Origin: Saccostrea cucullata
Taxonomy: Eukaryota
Assembly: GCF_032062105.1 (NCBI RefSeq)
Contig: NW_026937790.1
Coordinates: 1 to 64,000, forward strand
Length of the DNA: 64,000 nt
Reading direction: 5' to 3'
Both the position numbers and the translations under genes were made by a program. Numbering within the stretch: position 1 is the first letter of the stretch; the number at the start of each line of letters is the position of its first letter. This document shows positions 49,556 to 63,024 of this stretch, piece after piece. A model generated the notes under the pieces. The model did no database searches and was not told where the DNA came from. It saw only the letters and a list, made by a program, of their open reading frames with translations.

Positions 49556-52500
49556 TTAATATAACTGGAATATTTGAAAATTTATGATATATCTAAACTT
49601 CATTAAAATATTACCTTATTGTTTGTCCGGATTGACTGGACAAAGGTGCACCAGGATGACACAGGCCAGGTGCGGTTGATTATCCATATCCGATGGACAT
49701 AGTCGACAACATCCCTCAAGGGTCCTCCCCCCAGGAGTTGCTGATCCTCTGGAAGGCTAGAAAGATGTGTTCCTCAGGGATGAGAGAGAGAGAGAGCCAT
49801 CAACTTCTGCACACACTTGTTGACGTCATCTCTCTCTCTGTATGCGACCTGTATAAAATAAATGCAAATTCAATGATTTGAAATTGAAATTTTATACATT
49901 CTTTTTAAATAACCTATCTTTATTTTTTTTAATATTTTTAAACACTTTTTAGTTGTATCAATATTTTTTTCACACCTTACCTGTGGCCCATTCTCCTGAA
50001 CCTTGGTATAGACTGCCTTGGACCAGTGGAACACACACCCATGGATCCTGGCCTGGGAGAAGACCTCCTGCCACGCTAAAAGTCAGCCGTAAACAATGTC
50101 ATTGCAAGGGAATGGGGGGGGGGGGTGGGGGGTTGGAAGGATATTCACAAAGCACTGGAATACCTGAAATAAATAAATGACATTAAAAGTGTGTCTTAAA
50201 CGTCATTAAAAAGTATAAGAATCTTATCTTAAGAATTTTTAAATAATAAAGGATATTTATTTGATTGTTAAATTGTACAAAAAAAAAACAATGGGACGAA
50301 TTGTGAAAAATACCTTTCCGAAGTCCTTCCCATGTTTTCCTGACATCAGAGCAAAAGCAAGTGGCACCTGCTTCAGGGCATCCCCCTCTGGATGTACCGG
50401 TAGGCATGGATGGAGAACAGCTGCATAAAGGGCTTTCTCACTAGCGTGCCATCCAAGAATCACTGTTTCGTTGAGGCGAGGACCTCCAGTTGCTGGTCGG
50501 TGGCAAAGATGACGTGCCTCCGGTCCTTCACTCGGATGTCCGCCCTGAAAGAACTCGGTTCGATGAAGTCCTCGACGAATTACAAAATGAAAGATTTAAA
50601 ATTATTCATTTTACAGATTCTTTAAAATGTTTTTAAATACTTTTATAAAAACGTTAAAATGTATGTAAAATGTATTAAATTTTCTTGTCTTCAAAAAGTT
50701 TTTATGAAAATTCACATGTACGTTACCATTAAACTGTATTTAAAATGTTCTAAAGTATTTGCTAAATTAATAATTAATTTATTGACTTGTATTTTTCATT
50801 ATACTATTTCCTGTGTAAGAAAAAATGCTTAAATAATGAAAATTTAGACGCCACCGAGTAGCACGGCAGTGTGAGATGTACGTCTACACCCCTAGGACCT
50901 CTACAGCGAAATACATTTAACCGTTAAGAGATCTCCCCCTTGTAGGCCCCTATAGGGATTGTAGGGGATAGCGTCGATGAACGGGTAGTAGCCGAAATAT
51001 TGTGTATCTCCCTCCACATGTACTCCAGAAGGATGGTCATAGTTAGCAACTGTTATCCTTGACGAACAATTTCTAACCTGAATATTAAGTTATTAAACCA
51101 GTGAAACGTTAATATTGTTTATGTCACTGTTAATAGCAAAACTGTAAGCTAATATGAAAACATACCTGTACCATGTTTCTTGTTACAATTATAAGAGCTC
51201 GCCTTGGATGAAGACCATGCACTCGGGGCGATGCTCGGGGCAGAGTGTCGGGATCACCGAGTACATGTACACTTCTCTTATCTTCTCTCTCTGTCGGATG
51301 CATTACATAGACTCTGTCTGAGGAACAGCTACTAAGAGAAGATCTCAGTTGCGGAAAAGGGGAAAGGGTTGCTGACAAGGACCGAATCCGCATCAGCGGC
51401 TTCACAGGCTTCTCGGGGGAAAAAAAGGGGACCATCTCCAACTCCAACAAGGTATCCCCCCTGCAACCCCACAATTCCACCTCAAGCTCCAACACTCCCG
51501 TCTGCACCGCCTGAAGCTCATCGTTCACCAGTAGAAGCAAAACTTCCTCATGTATGTCATCTGTAGTAGCCGAAATATTGTGTACCTCCCTCCACATATA
51601 CTCAAGAAGGATGGTCATATTCATAGACGATTCGGCATCCCCCATCTCTTATGAACAACTGCATCTTACGTCCGGCACTACTCGGGCTTTTGAAGTCTTC
51701 CATACTGAGTAGTGGTACATTGCTGGTCAGAGTTCGCTCGCCATATCAGGTTGGGGCCAATGTCTGCTCATTGTGGATTAAGTAAAGCTATATCTTAATG
51801 CACTGATTTAATTGCAGGTTTTCAGGGGTATCTTGAAGAAACATGGCCGAGTTTGCAAATAAATTACTTTTTAAATAAACTGAAATACTCCTACATCAGA
51901 AGTGAGAAGAATATCCGACATATTTAGATGCTGACTTCAACTTTATGGCGTCGAGCCCGATGCTAGAAGAACCAAAAGTCTCTGTCGAGACTGTACCTCT
52001 ATTGGTTAATACTTATAATAAAGTAAGAGAAAAGTTGGGACTTAAAACTTTGAACGGAAAAATTTCACTCAAACAAACATAAATAATTTATAAAATAAAA
52101 AATAACACGTATATAGATACAGAGGCGCTGTCGTGAGTGCAGTTTAATTACACACAATAACACAAAATAATACAACTTTACTTCTCCGCAACTCTTAAAT
52201 CTACAAAACAAAAACGTATAATTAACCAGAAGTTTCTGTCGAGACTGTAGCTCTACTGGTTTATACTTATAACAAAGGATGGGAAAAGAAGCCATTGCCA
52301 TCAGACCAAAACTCTAGAAGGAGTAGCGTTTTAAAGGAATTTAACAGACATTTCTATTTTTAGTAGCAATGGCAACACTGTTCATCGAAATCAAAAACGG
52401 ATGCATTATTTTATGTATCTTAGTGCAGTCTACTTGTGTGCCATGTAATACCGAAATCAGACCAAAACTGTAGGAGGAGTAGCATTTAAATGGAATTTCA

Positions 52501-52730
52501 AAGAAAATTCTATTTTTAGTAACCATGGCAACACCGTTCATCGAAATCAAAAACCGATGCACTATTTTATGTATCGTAGTGTAGTCTACTTGTGTGCCCA
52601 GTAATATTGAAATCAGATCAAAACTGTAGGAGGAGTAGCGTTTTAAAGGAATTTCAAAGGAAATTCTATTTTTAGTATCTATGGCAACACCGTTCATCGA
52701 AATCAATAACCGATGCACTATTTTATGTAT

Positions 52731-52954
52731 TAAAGTAAACCCCAAAGTAATGTGACAACGGTTTATTAACACTTATAATACAATAAACAACTGTATGTCG
52801 AGTGGGTCCTGGCCGGGGGGAAAGACTCACCAACTTCTAGTTACGTCTTCTCTCTTGGCCATCGTCAGGGAGAAAGAGGCCCGTGCGACTGTCCCGCCAT
52901 CTGACGTCACCTTGTCAGTAGGTCGTACCACGGGACAGTCGCACAGATACTACA
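52731..52954 (-). repeat. 3' LTR
   Basis: Direct repeat of 62617-62838 (4 substitutions + one 2-bp indel by eye). Confidence 0.95.
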
Positions 52955-52970
52955 CTCCCCCCCGTTTTCT
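52955..52970 (-). promoter_or_regulatory. Polypurine tract
   Basis: AGAAAACGGGGGGGAG immediately before the 3' LTR on the minus strand. Confidence 0.85.
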
Positions 52971-53269
52971 TTAACAGGCGTAGGTCCTCACTGGGGGGAG
53001 GGTCCGGTACCATCTCCAGCGATGGGGCGCTATTAACGCCCGCCCGGGCAGGCTGCCCAGGAACAATAAGGCCGGGGCAAGCCCCAGATAATGCAAACTC
53101 AGGAAGATTCCTGAGTAAAAGGGGGTCCGGGATTGCTCCCAGTCGCACTAAAAGTCCTAGGTCCGGGATAATTCCCGGATACTAAGAAAACAGAATACAG
53201 GGTGAGTCCAGGTCTCTGACCTGCTCACCACTCCTGCACCACTGCGAGGGTCACCCTCCTAGCCCCAGG

Positions 53270-56200
53270 TCACGGCATCTCCGCGGTGATAATGCCCCCA
53301 GTGATGGTTCCAGGTGGAGGTCGGCCGGGGGCAGAGTCTTCCTCGGGACGGGGAATCTCTTCAATGGAGGAGGTCTCCTCGCTGTCGGTGTCCTCAAGAC
53401 GGCGGACCGGAACAAGGGCTCCTGAGGGGATGGGCTGACGCCACACGCATCTGTCCGATGGTCCTCCAGGAACACCGGTGGGCAAACTCATGCTGAAGCT
53501 CGTCACCCGCCGACTTCCAATCCTGCGCCCGTTGAACGCAGTAAGGTATGCCCATCGGAGCCGGGGGGACAGGCGCTGCAAGACGTGGGCGTGGACCCTC
53601 CAGTGAAGCAGCAAGGCGGGATGTAGCGGCCCTGTCATGATGTACACAGCTGGGGGGGACTCCCCAACGTGATAACATAGAGCGTCCATGGCCTGAACGA
53701 GGTCCCGAGTGGCGAGGCTGTTCCTGTCAGGAAAAACGCCTCCCCCCGAATACCATCCGCCAGAGTTTGAACGTCCCCATCCTCGCCCAGGACCTGGCGG
53801 GCTAACCATCTGAGGGCCTCCATACGAAGGGCGGAGACTTCCGGGGTAGGGGGCACCCCGCGTCGAAATACGGCGGGGAGGTGGTGCCGCAACATGTGGT
53901 CCCTCAGCTTCCTAGTCATTGCCCCACACAGAAGGGGGCAGGGAGAGGGAGGATGCTCCCTCCTAGCTCCTCTATCTCTGCTCCTACGGGAAGTAGGTTG
54001 GGGTCCGGGAATCCTGTCCGGGGCCCGGTTGGATCCATCAGTCCCTCCGGATGGTGGTGGCGATGTGTCTCTAGGATACGGCTGGAACACTGGTTTTGGA
54101 CACTCCTGGCGCTCTGGGGGTGAGGGTACCCTCCTCTCAGGGGACGACTCTGGGGGCCTCATCTCCCATTCTGGGACCCTTTTGTTGTACTGGGAGGGAG
54201 AACGCTCCCTCCTCCAGCCTCTCACAGGCGACTCTGCTTCGTCAGATGACAGGTCAGAAAACTGACCTTCCACAGGTGAACTGCAAAAGAAAGCAGACCC
54301 CACATTAGCTACCCTGGGCCCCCCCATACAATCTGGGCATATATACTGATCCAGGGAGGAAGCCTCCTGGGAAGTAACCCCCACACAAGCCCCATGAAAC
54401 CAACTGTTACACTGATCACACTGGATCATGAGTCCCCCATCATCTGGTTTACGACAGAAACAGTACAGTTCCAAGTCAGTTAGCTCCCCATCTGAGGACT
54501 TGGCGGACTCGGAGGAGGGCGACCGTACCTTGCGCGGGCGCCCCCGTTTCCTTGGTGCACGGGGAGGGCTGTCAGAGGACGAACTCGGGTAGGAAGGCCC
54601 AGGGGCCTCACTCAAGGAAGCATCCCCCTCTAGCGATGGGGCACCACTCACATCACCACCTTCCTGGGACTGGTCTCTGAACTTCTCTTGATACCGGGAC
54701 AACCACAAGGGTATATCCCGGTCTACACACTTCTTCAGGCGATCGTGGTTGACAACCATCACAGTGAGCTTGGTCTTAACTCGGTAGAGGTGGGAGTTTA
54801 ACTTCTTTAAGATTATACCTGGTCCCTTCCATGAGGGGCTCAACTTTCTGCACTTCCCCTTTACAGTGGCTGTGTCCAGGACATAAACCAGATCTCCTTC
54901 GTTATAAGAGCGAGCAGAAACCCTGAGGTCATAATCTCTCTTCATACGCTCCTCAGTGGTCTGGAGACGACGCCTGGCTGTCTCATGAGCTGACTGGATA
55001 GACCTTAAGATTGACCACATAGCCCTCAAGGTCAACAGCTGGATCCTTCTGGGGTGGGGCAAACATCAGGTCAGCAGGGATATTCACCTCCCTGCCCAAC
55101 ATGAGCTTGTTGGCCGTAAATCCGGTGTTCCTGTTAACAGCTGAGCGCAAGGCACCTGCTATCTGGGCAAGATGTTCATCCCAGCAGTTCTGAGCCTTGT
55201 CGATGTAACAGCGCACAGCATCCATCAAGGTTCTGTTATACCTTTCTACCTGGCCATTAGCCGAGGGACGAAAAGGGGTAGTACGGGCCTTATTGATCTG
55301 CAACAGGTCGCACACTGCGGTGAAGAGCTTAATCTCAAAGTTCCTACCCTGGTCCGTGAAGATCTGGAAGGGGCAGCCAAAGCGAGCGAAGAATCCGTCA
55401 ACCGCTGCGGTAGCAGTGACCTCCGCAGTCTGGGTTGGCAGGGGGATACATTCCACCCATTTGGTGAACTGGTCCACCATGACAAGGACATACTCGTTAC
55501 CCTGTTTGGTCCGGGGCAAGGGCCCCAGAAAATCAAGATGGACTCTCTCCATAGGGGAACCTGCATGGTACTTGATCATCTCTGCTCTTGCATGGCGCTG
55601 GGGGTGCTTGTTTCTACTGCATGGACCGCAAGTGCTAACAAACTGTTCAGCCTCCCTCATCATCCCATACCAGAAATATCTATCCCGCAAGCGAGCCTTG
55701 GTTCTATCAATGCCCTGGTGGCCAGCTGCTGGGACATCATGGCACAGGCGTAGCACCTCTTTCCTCAGCTCCTCGGGGACAACCAATAGTCTGTTCTTTA
55801 CATTCCCCTCCCCCACCTCCTTCCAAAGGACTTTGTCCTGGTCTAAGGTGAAGGCCGCCCTATTCAACCAATAGTTCTTCACTGCTGGGCTGGCGAGGAA
55901 GATCACTCCCTCCTCTGGACCTGCATCACCCTCTACCCAATCAAGAAACTGACTGATCTCCGAGTCCCTTAACTGGCATAAGCTCATTTCCTCTGGTGTT
56001 AGACCCACTAACGACAAAGAACCACCCGAATCCTCGGGGGGTACCCCCACCACTGCCACAAAGTGGGGATGTTTTGTGAGACGAACCTGGGTCCGGAGGG
56101 GGCCTTCCACTGACTCATCATTATCGAAGTCCACTTCTGGGGAACAAAGTGACCAATACGTCCTAGCAATCCCCCAGAAACATAACCGAAGGCCACCTCA

Positions 56201-58827
56201 CTAACAGAAGGCTGTGCTAGTCCTAGGGGAGAGGGCGAATCACTGGTGTTGCCCTCTGGGTCTAAAACTGACTCCTCTACAGCTTCCACCTCCGAACTGG
56301 GCGTATACGTCCAACTTCCGGGACTAGCTAAGGGTGCAACATTGTCCACTTCCTCGGAAAAGGCATTCCAAGATTGGTGGGCCTTAACACATTTTGGGCA
56401 TCCTCCACAAGGCAGGTCACTAGGATGTATGGTGACATCTGATCCGGCACAGAGGGCCTGAGGAGGTAACCTAGACAAGGCGTCTGCATTAACATGGCGT
56501 CGCCCAGGGCGGTGCTGTATCTCCATGTCGTACTGACTAAGTTCCTCCATCCATCTGGCAAGCTGGTCCTGCGGGTTCCTAAAGTTCAACAACCAAATAA
56601 GGCTATGATGGTCGGTCCTGACAATAAATCTCCTCCCCAGCAAGTAATGGCGGAACAGTCGAGTGAAGCGGATAACTGCTAACAGCTCCTTCCGGGTTGT
56701 GCAGTATTTGCGCTGCTCTGGGGATAGACTGAGGCTTCCATAAGATATGGGTCTCTCCTGGCCATCCTGTATCTGTGAGAGCTCTGCCCCTATGGCCTCA
56801 TTGGAAGCGTCAGTGTCAAGTAAGAACTCTCCATCGGGAATCGGCAGGGCCAAGACTGGCGGAGATGTGAGGCCCCCCTTTAAACCTTCAAAAGCTGACT
56901 GTTGATCTGGGCCCCATATGAATGGTTTCTTGCCCGTTATCCTATAGAGGGGCAGTACCCACTCCGCATAACCCGCAATGAACCCTCGATGATAGTTGGC
57001 GAACCCTAGGAACCTCTCCACCTCCTTAGTATTTCTAGGAACGGCCCAGTTCCGGACTGCGGCAATGTAGTCATCCCCCATCTCGATGCCCTCCTTGCTC
57101 ACAAGGCGCCCCACCTTGGTCTGGAAAAGCTCACACTTTTTTGGCTTAAACTTCAAATCAAACTCCCGGAAGCGCATGAACACAGCACGCAAGTTCTCAA
57201 GGTGATCCTGGAAATCTCGGCCTAAAACCAGGGCATCATCTAAGAAGGCCAGAACAATACTCCAAGTAAGGCCTCTGAGTACAAGGTTCATCGCCCTGGA
57301 GAAGGTAGCTGGGGCATTACATAGACCAAACCCCATGCGCACAAACTCAAACAGACCATACTTAGTCAAAAAGGCAGTCTTTTTCCTGTCCTGGGGGCGG
57401 ATCTTAATCTGGTGAAAGGCCGAATTGGCGTCGAGCTTGGAAAACCAAACATTCCCAGTGAGGGTGTCCAGGCACTCGTCTATCAGGGGTAAGGGGAAAA
57501 CATCCTTCCGGGTCACCTTGTTTAGGCGGCGGTAGTCCAGGCACCACCTTACCTGGCCATCTTTTTTCCGGATCAGGACGGGGGCAGAGGCCCACTCCGA
57601 CATGGAGGGCTGTATCACTCCGGCCTCCAGCATTTTCTTAAGGTGGGATTCCTCCTCACCAGCAAAGAACATAGGGGTGCGTCTCATCCGCTCCTTCACT
57701 GGGGGTGCGTCTCCAGTGTCTATCTCGTGTTCTAGTGCGGTGAAGTTCCCAAAGTCAAATTCACTGCGAGCAAAGACATCTTGAAACTCTGTCAGCAGAC
57801 TGGCCAACATAGCCCTCTCCTCTGGGCTGAGTTCTACAGAGGAGCGCTCCAACAAGTCCTGTAGGAATTCCGGCACCTCTTGGGTGGGGGCTGTCGCCCC
57901 CAGGTCCCCTACATCTTCGCCACCCACGGTCCTAACCAGATAAGGCACTGGCTGGCGAGGATCCGCTTCCACCGCCATACCTATGTGACTGCCCTCAGTC
58001 AATGTCACTCCTCGATCTGAAGCATTCACTATGCAAACTATTGCACTGTCCCCTCCCTCGTGATATGTATGGGGCATAAGGAGCACATCCGACTGCATAT
58101 CAATGCCAGGGACCACCACAAAATCCTTCAGCTTCCGATCCAGATGACTGGGGCATAAAACAACAGAGCCAGCTGGGACCCGTACCTTCCGGGCTAAGGT
58201 CACTCTCGCCTCCGGAATCTCCTCAGCTCTGCCAAAATTCATCTTAATGGCCTCTCCTCCCAAGGTCAAGGTCCCATGCTCTAAATCTAGACGGGCCTTC
58301 CTGGCGTGAAGGAACTCCATGCCCAGCAACATAGGGTCCTGCAAGGGGGCTACATAAAGGTCAACCTCGTAAGTTTGACTCCCTAAACTCAAAGTCACGG
58401 GCCCCACTATGAAACCCTTGAGCTTGGTATCTTCACCAGCCTGCGTCATAGTTACATGTCTCCGGATGGGGGGCTTCGGATCCAAGCGGTCGTACACCTT
58501 CGTCGACAGGACACTAACCTCTGCCCCCGTATCCACCACAGCATTTACCCGCAAGCCTTGCACATGTAGACTGACTGAAAAGCCTGCAGATGGGCGCAAC
58601 TGTCCTATGGGCACCGTCGGCTCGACCCCCTCATCCAATGGCGTCTCCAACTTAAGATTACCAGGGTTGGTTCGCCCAAAACCCTTTAACTTTCCTGTTC
58701 TCTCCTGGGCTGGTCCAAGAGGCTCCGACGTTGAGTGGGGGGTCACAGGTATCCCCACTTCCTCGACCTCTTCCTCCTCAGCCGAGAACAGCTCCGGTGA
58801 GGGCGGCAACTCAAAGCTGACCTTCAA
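53270..58827 (-). pseudogene. pol: Gypsy pol: aspartic protease, RT, RNase H, integrase, C-terminal AT-hook + PHD + extra domain; frameshifted
   Basis: VVDTGAEVS; RWCLDYRRLN, MGFGLCNAPATF, FLDD; DTDAS..RKELLA..TDH; integrase H..H..C..C, HLDFLGP, TDQG, GQVERYN. Frame changes near 56130, 55005 and ~53730; apparent 3-aa deletion in RT (QTKV^GRLV). Confidence 0.9.
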
Positions 58828-58925
58828 CTTGCGTCGCTTGCGTCTACGTCGAATTCACGAGGGCGGTAAACTGGCCTCCTGCTCTTGCTGTTCCGAGTCT
58901 GTCCTCTCTGGGGACTGCTCCGGGG

Positions 58926-61900
58926 TCACCAATCGAACTGCCTGGGAAGCCGCTCCCTGTGATCCGGGCTTTCCACTCCTTTGTCCCTATCCTTAGACTC
59001 GGACCTCTGAGATCCCTCACTCATGAGTCCCTTCTTCTGAGCGCCACCCCGCTGCCCATCAATGGCTACTGACTTCCCTGCAGCCAGGGTGGGGCAATTC
59101 CTACGGAAATGCCCAACCTCTCCACACTTAAAACAAACCGGGGGTTTCTGGTCGCGCTCTGCCGATCGGGGTGGCGGGGTACCAGTCCTCTCCGGCCTGG
59201 GGAGGGGGGCAGATCCTTTCTGCTTAACAGCTTGCTCCAACTTTTCCATCCTACTGCGGAGGGCTTCGCAGCACTGTTAAGGCTAGAAAAAGGGGGCGGG
59301 GCCTAATTTATACGGGAAAAGTTTACTGTGACGTCACACAAAAATATGACTTTTATGCATTCATCATATTACCCGAAAATAAAATAATTTGCAACTTTAA
59401 ACTGTATTAGCATAATAAACAACAATAAGACTTACCAATGCATTTAAAAAAGTCGCTAGTTAAATCCCATACAGCTGGTTTTAAACAAATCACTGATCTC
59501 GATGAACTTGTCAATCATGACGTCATTTTGGTAAAAATGACGTATTTCATGTACTGTGAGAGGCAGATTTGGGAATTTTTTAACAATGAAAAATGCGTTA
59601 TACTATAAAACAGAATATTATTTTTAGGTTTTTAATAGGCTTATAATACCAATGTATATCCTTCGTTAAGTGCGATTATTTATCAACTATCGAGAGAATG
59701 TTTTTAAATAATTCTGTCGTGTTTTAATGTTCAGGTTAGGTATATTTTACATCGAGGTGCCTCATAAAATCGCTTTTTCGCAAGGGCATACACTAAATAA
59801 ATCTTGACCATGTTTTGAATATAAATAAAGGATATGTTCCTTAACTTGAAAAGTGCTGCTGCTTTCTTGAAATCGAGAGCATGACTTCATAAGTACACAA
59901 AATATTTGGAAAAAGTCAGACATATTTCGACATTAGCCTATTTACTCAAAATTATAACTATTAAAACGCGATTTCTATTCAAAGCAGCAGCACTTTCCAG
60001 AAAGTACAAAGTATGCAGAAACAATTAATAGTTTGAATTTTTAATTTCAACTAGGGTATGCCCTTGCGATATTGAAATTTGTTATTGACCTACATTCCGT
60101 GTACCCACTATGCATTCACCACGTGACTGTCCATCGATGGGACTAAACTCCATACAGTACAGAGTAGGTTATTCTATGCTATTTCCATAAGTTTTTAATT
60201 CTGTGATAATAGAACAGCTGAATAAAAATTAATTCAGTTTTAAAAACAATTCCCGTTTTTGCACTTCTATTTTCCGTTGATTTCTCATAGTAAGCCTTAA
60301 CAGTGCTGCGTTCCAGCTCTTCCCCCGCAGAAGCGACACTCACTTTCTCCTGATTGTCCTGTTCGGGGACATCACCTGAGATCAATTTCCGTACCTCTTT
60401 CTTGGTCTTAGGCCTATGTAACCGGGAGTGCTGGAAATATTGCATCCTCTCTACAGCTTCCTCTACAGTCCGGAGGTGCCCATCCAGGGCATAAAGGCCT
60501 GCGTCCCTGTCCTCGGCTCCATAACACAATTTGGGGATAGCATGAGTGTGAACGTCGGGCACGCTTGGGAAGGCCCGGGTGGCCAAGGTCAGCACCCGGT
60601 CTGCCCACTGTCGAAGGGCCTCCCCAGGATTCTGGCTCGCTGACTGGAAGTTGAGTTGGTGCGTCAAATCAGGAGCAGAGGAGCCAAAACGCTTCTCAAA
60701 CCTCTGCAGAATCTCGCTTAGAGGGAGCAGTGTAGTTGTTTCTAGCAGCAAGGTGTAGTATTCACTTGCCACCCCTTCAAGGGAAAAACAGAACTGGTCA
60801 TGTTGCTCCTCCTCAGTCCACAGCTGACTGCGAGACAACCTGATAAACTTGTGCAAAAATGCCTTCCAACTGGTTTTGCCATCATACCGGAGGTCCTTGT
60901 ACCTAGGTTTGCTTCCCGAGGCCATCCTTCCTGTGTATGGCGTGGTGCTGTGGTATCCAGGTGATCCATACTGTTTCAGTGCGCTTAAGTTACGGGCTGG
61001 GTTTGCCGGGACTGTCTGATTGACAGAGTATCCCGGCCGGGCTGCAGCATACATGTTTGGCTGCACTTGCGCTATCCTCTCCCCCTCCCTTCCAAAATGG
61101 CAGGGTGGGGCGTCAGTATAGGCGGGACTACATGTCATAGATGCAGGGATACCCTGGTGATGCAAAGCACTGGGCAAAGGTATACTCGGATGTGTGGCCG
61201 GGATATTCTCACCACGGTACAGCACAGACTGGGGTGGATCGAGGATTGGGGGTTGGGCATGCCCACCCCCCTGGTTGATGTGAGCAGGTGGGGGCACTTG
61301 GTAAGGCGTGCTTGTAGAGGTTGCGTATAATGGTGCAGACTGGTGTCTGGCAGCAGACATGCCGGTATCCAAAGGCCACGAAGCTAGGTTGCTTGGCGAT
61401 TCCGACTGCATCAACCCAGGGGACACTCCCACATTTATAGGGACTGGAGCAGGCATAGTGTGAGACATGGAGGTCCGGGGTTGCAAATCATCCCCGGGGA
61501 AAAAGGGCACACTGAAGTCTGCGAGTTTAGGCTGAGTCTGTACAGGCGTAGGGTTCCAGGTGAGCTCTGTAGCACGAACAGGATCAAACTCAGAAATGAG
61601 CTGTTCAGGCCTCATAGGCCTCTGAGACTGTTGGTCGTGTTTGGAGGTAAGTGGTGTAGGCCTCATAGGCCTCTCCGTCGTCCAATCGCATTTGTAGGTG
61701 AGCGGTTCAGGCCACATGGGCCTCTCAGGCTGTCGATCCTCAAATGGTGTGTAGGGTGGAAGGGCGGGGTCAGGAGTGGGGTATACACCCCCACTTAAGC
61801 GGCTTGGTCGGAATCCCCTAGTGGCAGGACCCCCCAGGTTAGCTGTGTCTCCTACAAGGACAGGCTGGCTACTAGCCGGCCGCACATAACCTAAAGAATA

Positions 61901-62176
61901 CGGTTCAATGTCGGAAGTCCGAGGAACCTCACTGCATTCATACTTAGGTGGGGTACTACCCACAGTGCTGCCAGGTGAGCTACACCTACACAGGCTACCT
62001 AAAGAGGACTCCAGAGAATCAGTGGACATCATCCCTGGTGAGCTAAATTGGGGCTGGGAAAACCGTACCTCTTTCCGTGACACACTCTCCTCCCCCCTGG
62101 GAATGCCCGAGTTCAGACCGGGCGTAAGTACAGAGGGACCCCCCCAGGGCAACCCCCCTCCCACACGGCCTGACAT
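58926..62176 (-). pseudogene. gag: Gypsy gag with CCHC knuckle, interrupted by a MITE
   Basis: YDGKTSWKAFLHKF capsid-like region; CFKCGEVGHFRRNC. Removing 59267-60310 plus one TT restores ..GEELEALRSRMEKLEQ in frame. Confidence 0.9.
59267..60310. mobile_element. Non-autonomous DNA transposon, 18-bp TIR, 2-bp TSD
   Basis: CGCAGCACTGTTAAGGCT ... AGCCTTAACAGTGCTGCG, with TT duplicated (59265-66, 60311-12). AT-rich block within GC-rich gag. Confidence 0.9.
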
Positions 62177-62595
62177 TCACTGAGCAAATGGAGATGTGTG
62201 ACGGGATGGAAAGCTCCCGCTATATACATAAGGTGAATAACCCCCTTCCCCGGGGTATCCCCCCACCCTACCCGGGGTGTGAGGAATGACATTTGCCCGC
62301 GTGACTGCCGGGATACCTCCCAGACCTAAGGCCGACGCGGCTTCCTCCAGACATATCCATACAATGTGAAAATGCACAAAATAAATGTCAAATAAATCAC
62401 AGCAAAAATAATCACTTGCTATAAATGCAGATACAAATTAATTTCAGTTGATTCAAATCAAAATTCGATTGCAAAAAAAAAATACACAAAAATCACCCGC
62501 GCATTCTGCAACAAAAATGGCGGCTGGGGTGATGGCCAAAAAAAAACAAAAAAAAAACCTAACTTTGACAGAAGTACGGGAATCTATAGCACCGG

Positions 62596-62615
62596 GCCCC
62601 GCGAATTGGGCGCCA
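62596..62615 (-). promoter_or_regulatory. Primer binding site, tRNA-Lys(CTT)-type
   Basis: TGGCGCCCAA(TT)CGCGGGGC one base after the 5' LTR; the canonical Lys1,2 PBS is TGGCGCCCAACGTGGGGC. Confidence 0.8.
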
Positions 62616-62616
62616 G

Positions 62617-62838
62617 TAAAGTAAACCCCAAAGTAATGTGACAACGGTTTATTAACACTTATAATACAATAAACAACTGTATGTCGAGTGGGTCCTGGCC
62701 CGGGGGAAAGACTCATCAACTTCTAGTTACGTCTTCTCTCGGCCATCGTCGTGGAGAAAGAGGCCCGTGCGACTGTCCCGCCATCTGACGTCACCTTGTC
62801 AGTAGGTCGTACCACGGGACAGTCGCACAGATACTACA
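62617..62838 (-). repeat. 5' LTR
   Basis: Direct repeat of 52731-52954; adjacent to the PBS. Confidence 0.95.
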
Positions 62839-63024
62839 GTATCTTAGTGTAGATCTAGTCTACTTGTGTGCCAAGTTATATTAAAATCAGTCCAAAACTG
62901 AAGGAGGAGTAGCGTTTTGAAAAATTGTTTACAGACAGACAGACAGACGGACGGACGACTGACACCTTACTATCACATAAGCTCTTCAGGTCTCTGACCA
63001 GTAGAGCTAATAAAAACGAAGATA

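Follow-up and report, generated by a model that had tools for sequence, protein, structure and literature searches.

A Ty3/Gypsy Clade of Molluscs Whose Integrase Ends in a Candidate Histone-Reading PHD Finger

The Element in the Window

The window, a stretch of 64,000 nucleotides of contig NW_026937790.1 from Saccostrea cucullata, belongs to an AT-rich genome of 1.17 Gb. It contains an interrupted copy of a Ty3/Gypsy LTR element on the minus strand (52731-62838), and the stretch under study is the tail of this copy. The element is about 9 kb long and has two direct LTRs, a primer-binding site, a polypurine tract, and a target-site duplication; its Pfam domain order, gag-PR-RT-RH-IN, matches that of Ty3/Gypsy. 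All features given below are on the minus strand, except where stated.

The 5' LTR (62617..62838, with TG...TA ends) aligns to the 3' LTR (52731..52954) with 218 matches, 4 mismatches, and 2 gaps. The primer-binding site (62598..62615), which we take to be tRNA-Lys-like, was located directly after the 5' LTR in 12 of the 12 copies where the pattern was found. The polypurine tract is at 52955..52972. The 4-bp target-site duplication ATAC (52727..52730, partner 62839-62842) lies within a 156-bp tandem repeat; duplications of 4 bp were also found in nine of ten other two-LTR copies.

The gag region (58929..62360) encodes a PNMA-like capsid region and a CCHC knuckle (Pfam zf-CCHC, E 6e-8; PNMA, E 4e-4, under the cut-off). 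Within it lies an AT-rich insertion of about 1046 nt (59265..60310, no strand) with TTAA at both ends, which is missing from a sister copy and from a contig of another run. The insertion is high-copy, has short inverted ends, and is likely a non-autonomous DNA transposon, presumably Kolobok- or piggyBac-like. Protease, reverse transcriptase, and RNase H follow (56011..58851; Pfam E 1e-10, 4e-26, and 3e-30, respectively), and then the zinc-binding domain and catalytic core of the integrase (54986..56197; Integrase_H2C2, E 3e-20; rve, E 1e-11). With the gag insertion and with frame breaks near 58984, 56142, 55003, and 53738, the window copy is dead. The LTRs are identical in two sister copies; therefore, the family moved recently.

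Of the 54 private substitutions in one copy (L020:789-8906), 33 change A to G, and 31 of these form a cluster across codons 831-1320. The pattern resembles RNA hyper-editing that reverse transcription then fixed, with ADAR as the putative cause.

Integrase, AT-Hook, and PHD Finger in Natural Copies

Behind the integrase core are an SH3-like (WxGP) domain (54730..54897), conserved across families and with weak Pfam matches to SH3_Tf2-1 and Integrase_p58_C that both fall under the cut-off, an AT-hook-like motif, RKRGRPRK (54529..54552), and a C4HC3 PHD finger with a Tyr/Asp/Met/Trp cage (54328..54465). The translation of 54328-54552 confirmed that the motif and the finger quoted in the sequence-only reading lie in one minus-strand frame. 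That reading also restored the frame with one shift near 55005, and we located the break near 55003; in the window copy the tail (53638-55065) does not share the frame of the integrase core (54986-56197).

The claim that integrase, AT-hook, and PHD constitute one ORF was borne out in the sister loci. A DNA search of the genome returned 18 loci, the window and 17 others (16 copies), as a lower bound. The core, the AT-hook, and the PHD are encoded in one unbroken ORF in six of the 17 (L003, L005, L006, L007, L009, and L011); therefore, the fusion is real. Locus L008 joins the core to the AT-hook, but its PHD did not fit the motif pattern. One copy has a single frame of 2706 codons from gag to tail.

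We calculated pN/pS from variants shared by at least two of the 16 copies; these copies are related, and the p values are thus indicative. The integrase core gave a ratio of 0.04 and the PHD one of 0.12 (10 synonymous, 5 non-synonymous; binomial p 1e-4); the values were 0.09 for the AT-hook (5 and 1; p 0.013), and 0.06 for the domain that follows the PHD (82 and 15; p 6e-34). By this measure, the PHD is under purifying selection.

Class and Cage of the PHD Finger

The finger matched the Pfam PHD model (PF00628) with E 7e-12 and 45.6 bits, against a cut-off of 24, and the C4HC3 zinc ligands are present. The closest solved structures are BPTF, PHF2/8, DIDO1, and CFP1 (E 5e-16 to 4e-13; profile E 1e-19). 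The top classes are at most 3 bits apart and do not single out a donor gene; for the central 27 residues, the best match was TAF3. With BPTF, PHF2, CFP1, and DIDO scoring best, the earlier assignment to the H3K4me3-reader class is upheld as a class by sequence. The representatives named for that class were CFP1, BPTF, and DIDO, which are among the top matches, and ING, which ranks far lower.

The accessible parts of PMC3241642 and PMC8246079 define H3K4me3-reader PHDs by two to four aromatic/Met cage residues, an invariant Trp, and an acidic R2 pocket; they also describe such a cage, the aspartate found in TAF3, and the requirement for the Met. The cage, the Trp, and the acidic R2 pocket are all present in the sequence of the window PHD. 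By alignment, the cage comprises Tyr (the first wall in BPTF), Asp, Met, and Trp. The PHDs of BPTF, PHF2/8, DIDO1, CFP1, and TAF3 have the same C4HC3 pattern, aromatic-Met-Trp cage, and acidic R2 site. At the fourth wall the window PHD has Asp, like TAF3, whereas BPTF and PHF2 have their second Tyr there; because the cage lacks this second tyrosine, the methyl-state preference is uncertain.

An SH3-like motif followed by a PHD was found in 109 of 215 collected proteins, at least one of which (P0193) resembles a host protein. The cage residues are conserved among the 109, with Tyr/Phe in 105, Met in 105, and Trp in 109, although the pattern admitted only W/Y/F at the Trp site. The variable fourth wall is Asp, Tyr, or Trp in 90, and the R2 site is Asp or Glu in 92.

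The AT-hook has an RGRP core with basic flanks and scored 14.2 bits against PF02178 (cut-off 17.4; E 0.04). It is conserved within the family of the window element, to which it is specific, and was found in one of the 109 proteins. The proposal that an animal Gypsy lineage captured a histone reader together with an AT-hook survives for the PHD, which is conserved and sits at the chromodomain position of an animal Gypsy element, and is weakened for the hook, which does not belong to the design of the lineage.

Distribution and Phylogeny

A protein search of the genome gave 302 candidates, 150 of which were scored. Twenty distant loci were examined: 16 are Gypsy elements of about eight families with a PHD ending Pol, two are broken Gypsy elements, and two were rejected as Gypsy because they are Mutator-like. 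At least eight other PHD-ended Gypsy families reside in the same genome. At L110:5238-7910 and L111, Mutator-like transposase frames carry at their end a protease-like region together with a different PHD; such an architecture is shown in the accessible part of PMC2836005.

Pfam PHD and element domains occurred together in 30 of 31 and 42 of 44 public protein matches. The named hosts of PHD-bearing proteins are Mytilus, Pinctada, Pecten, Saccostrea, Haliotis, and Nucella, that is, bivalves and gastropods. The oyster protein P0059 is nearly identical to a sister family, and a hemichordate model breaks off directly behind the SH3-like domain. Gene models derived from these elements carry host-gene labels in error; a protein of Mytilus, for instance, goes by the name BPTF.

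We computed a quick, midpoint-rooted integrase tree of 112 rows, the public ones gathered with a PHD-containing query. One clade (84 rows, SH-aLRT 99%) contains 77 of the 78 PHD rows, and one PHD row falls outside. Seven rows in this clade were scored as having no PHD; of the four inspected, three have visibly decayed fingers and one is truncated. Twenty genome loci, for which integrase similarity was the sole criterion of choice and which share 42-49% identity with the query, were all placed outside the PHD clade; no PHD was present in the C-termini inspected among them, most of which end in a basic motif. A single old capture of the PHD is the simplest reading of this tree. As judged from the named hosts, the clade is mollusc-wide; its integrase terminates in a PHD that is conserved, and the fusion is real throughout.

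For most of the PHD-less relatives (L115-L132), the integrase C-terminus is a short basic motif, R-x-G-R-x-x-K-x-P-x-x-L-x-D-Y, at the same position as the PHD. We take this motif to resemble nucleosome-binding motifs and possibly to serve as a nucleosome anchor. The gag of two PHD families (L096:1228-3960 and L098:6302-8290) starts with a DNA-binding helix-hairpin-helix motif (Pfam HHH_3, E 9e-8 and 2e-4). Contig G000:C7530 harbors three PHD-element matches of equal score and frame length with 7587-nt spacing, which are either a tandem array or an assembly artefact.

A Proposed Role for the PHD Finger

We lean, with modest confidence, toward a PHD that binds H3 methylated at K4 and thereby holds the integration complex on chromatin that is, or recently was, active. 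Such a tether is supported by the fusion seen in natural copies, the cage of the reader class, the purifying selection, the occurrence in one clade, and the basic motif that most PHD-less relatives have in the same place. The protease would free the integrase with its tail attached. The PHD would then engage the N-terminus of H3: K4me2/3 would sit in the Tyr/Asp/Met/Trp pocket, and R2 would meet the acidic residue that follows the third cysteine. In the window family only, the AT-hook might contribute a minor-groove DNA contact. The integrase core would then cut with a 4-bp stagger. As described in the accessible parts of the respective papers, an ING2 PHD fused to an integrase tether sent HIV-1 integration to start sites (PMC8149907), RAG2 employs a PHD on H3K4me3 (PMC3241642), and chromodomains steer integration (PMC6673714).

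Some PHDs bind non-histone proteins, according to the part of PMC3241642 available, and several copies of the element have degenerate fingers. That the PHD has a non-histone partner, or is a passively carried host fragment, nevertheless strikes us as very unlikely in view of the purifying selection, the conservation across bivalves and gastropods, and the intact cage.

A Third-Gene Domain Behind the PHD

In sister copies, a tail of 363 residues, absent from the sequence-only reading, extends past the PHD. Ten of 16 copies keep the frame open beyond the PHD; in the other six, a stop follows within about 10 residues. A splice-acceptor-like signal (54281..54308), consisting of a branch point, a pyrimidine tract, and CAG, lies inside the reading frame of the window copy and recurs in the 15 other copies displayed; its function in splicing is putative. 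The tail includes a domain (53524..53952) with a zinc-finger-like C-x3/4-C...H-x4-H pattern and a helical 'LLHW' region, which corresponds by homology to the first part of the ORF3 of sister families (tblastn E 1e-11 to 1e-4, and alignment).

A structure model of this domain reached a pLDDT of 94; a model built from 8 sequences scored poorly, at 60. Neither Pfam nor the PDB gave a sequence match to the domain, and in Atlas it matched unnamed clusters only (0.88). Foldseek returned no match at E 0.001 in the PDB and viral libraries, and the best Z was 3.1, which does not by itself prove a new fold.

In sister families, the domain is encoded as a separate ORF3 and is often fused to a TatD or metallo-beta-lactamase fold. 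Such an ORF3 is found in many related Gypsy families, whether or not they have the PHD; examples are L099:179-1882, L101:8105-9937, L123:6220-8115, L125:6226-7803, and L114:7837-9396. In these ORF3s the zinc-finger-like/LLHW domain is joined to a TatD DNase (Pfam E down to 8e-46) or to the lactamase fold, and they usually lie behind a pyrimidine tract, AG, and ATG. A literature search for TatD with Gypsy gave nothing relevant.

The post-PHD domain is the product of the clade's third gene, read through from Pol in the 10 copies with a continuous frame, and is probably also made from spliced RNA. Two oligo-dT runs covered the coding region at a depth below 1 per strand; contigs of two other runs cover it as well, and these may be DNA. 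A contig of RNA run X3 joins the leader (window 62588) to 54271, about 10 nt past the predicted acceptor, and the ends are not GT-AG in the window copy. This contig may derive from a different subfamily, as a spliced RNA, or from a DNA copy with a deletion.

The read-through in the window family, together with fusions of a PHD to an ORF3-type domain in other genomes (P0350, P0002, and P0005), would fit a PHD that acts after or apart from integration, binding the element's own LTR or host chromatin jointly with the third-gene domain so as to resist silencing or tune transcription; evasion of silencing is a role suggested in the accessible part of bioRxiv 2021.11.30.470311. However, the PHD is the very end of the integrase in eight other families, in which ORF3 is separate, and ORF3 is also found in families without a PHD; therefore, PHD and ORF3 do not form a fixed unit, and we regard this explanation as improbable.

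Insertion Context

To return to the tether to H3K4-methylated chromatin, we compared the flanks of 18 insertions of the window family, 17 of a PHD family without the hook, and 17 of a PHD-less family. The background comprised 100 blocks from 20 stretches, taken from long contigs only; four apparently internal flanks were excluded. Median CpG o/e values were 0.77, 0.83, and 0.73 for the three families, respectively, and 0.63 for the background; the corresponding flank GC values were 0.340, 0.342, 0.344, and 0.323. Between the 35 PHD-family and the 17 PHD-less flanks, neither CpG o/e (p 0.34) nor GC (p 0.85) differed, in a weak test that relied on composition proxies, old copies, and small samples. 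In the same small comparison, flanks of the hook family were no more AT-rich than those of the hook-less families. All three families are scarce in low-CpG DNA; this scarcity is therefore not PHD-specific. Within the limits of a weak test, the result speaks against any strong bias that would be easy to see, and against a preference for AT-rich targets on the 1-kb scale.

The 156-bp tandem repeat (window 52300-52730; L052/L053) houses two of the 18 window-family insertions, about 10 bp apart within the unit, and none of the 34 insertions of the other two families; this is a post hoc observation on a small sample. The repeat is not an obvious promoter.

The lack of a flank difference, measured with poor proxies on old copies filtered by selection, and the two insertions in the repeat count against the tether. 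Promoter targeting should also be harmful, as argued in section 10 of bioRxiv 2021.11.30.470311, which is accessible in part. The PHD might instead bind H3 tails and act as a general anchor on chromatin, making integration more efficient or keeping the complex on chromosomes, with little effect on the site. Flanks that do not differ from those of the PHD-less family are what such an anchor predicts, and sister clades put a short basic tail in the same slot; the methyl-lysine cage, however, is kept in more than 95% of the 109 diverse proteins, which implies mark-specific reading. We consider the general anchor rather unlikely, a little less so than a role in silencing.

Joined to the tether, which we continue to favor, the observations suggest a fuller scenario: an undescribed old clade swapped a basic integrase tail for an H3K4me2/3-reading PHD and aims at promoter-type germline chromatin, as a mirror image of chromoviruses, while carrying a spliced third gene that encodes TatD cargo and a zinc domain whose fold has no match. 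We offer this whole only tentatively and think it doubtful that every part will hold. Known reader-guided Gypsy elements go to heterochromatin, and a natural reader of an active mark on an integrase would, if true, reverse this strategy and probably give rise to regulatory mutations in farmed molluscs. With related PHD and PHD-less families in the same genome, a comparison is at hand between the reader domain and later selection as determinants of retrotransposon location.

Comparison with Known Systems

Our literature search, which excluded Repbase, GyDB, and most subscription journals, found no paper on the clade described here. The accessible text of PMC6238403 (mollusc clades MolGy1-16) and PMC13524379 (term search) has no mention of a PHD, nor does the main text of PMC5890265 contain 'PHD'; in the accessible text of PMC5408684 and bioRxiv 2026.05.21.726589, the term appears only in a reference and an acknowledgement. 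Retrotransposon PHDs are termed widespread in the available part of PMC6673714. Section 10 of bioRxiv 2021.11.30.470311, as far as accessible, describes 823 chromatin-transposon fusion models, with retrotransposon PHDs of cnidarians among them, and its Supplementary Table 6 could include the elements described here.

The sequence-only reading named a PHD in lycophyte Selgy elements as a precedent. We did not find this precedent: 'PHD' is absent from the main text and five supplements of PMC6317226, in which a table gives Selgy no extra domain. Selgy, a non-chromovirus clade of lycophytes, consists of short elements that use a tRNA-Ala primer and have neither an additional domain nor an additional ORF (PMC6317226 supplementary file 3). 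The window element, at about 9 kb and with a PHD and an ORF3-type domain, lies outside the Selgy definition.

Other transposable elements with a PHD are compared here from the accessible parts of their descriptions. Gypsy-7a_cRei of Chlamydomonas (bioRxiv 2022.06.16.496473) is likewise a Gypsy polyprotein with a PHD suspected of steering insertion; it is from a green alga, its legend puts the PHD before INT, and the comparison is by description only. Ginger1-9_HM of Hydra (PMC2836005) shares a Gypsy-like integrase with a C-terminal PHD but is a DNA transposon in which Ulp1 precedes the PHD. The CR1-like ORF1 (cited in PMC6673714) and the cnidarian PYGO-like retrotransposon fusions (bioRxiv 2021.11.30.470311 section 10) also have transposon-borne PHDs, in a different element class or position; no PYGO chain was among the structure and profile matches listed for the window PHD. 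The ORF3 cargo of bdelloid LTR elements (PMC5408684, accessible part) is similar in being an accessory, often nuclease-like gene after pol. It differs from the zinc-finger-like/LLHW domain found here; a TatD or metallo-beta-lactamase fold is found in sister families, and neither is present in the window family.

The element further resembles the chromoviruses (e.g., MAGGY), as portrayed in the accessible parts of PMC6673714 and bioRxiv 2021.11.30.470311, which share the Gypsy order with a histone reader behind the SH3-like domain of the integrase. A search of the entire 2706-aa frame gave no Chromo match, even with E as high as 1. The PHD occupies the chromodomain position and is fused to the integrase, as first proposed; it replaces the chromodomain, its predicted target is H3K4me rather than heterochromatin, and a third ORF is added, whereas targeting has been shown for chromoviruses only. 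As read from its domain architecture, the element is a new variant of the chromovirus design and, by the defining domain, is not a chromovirus.
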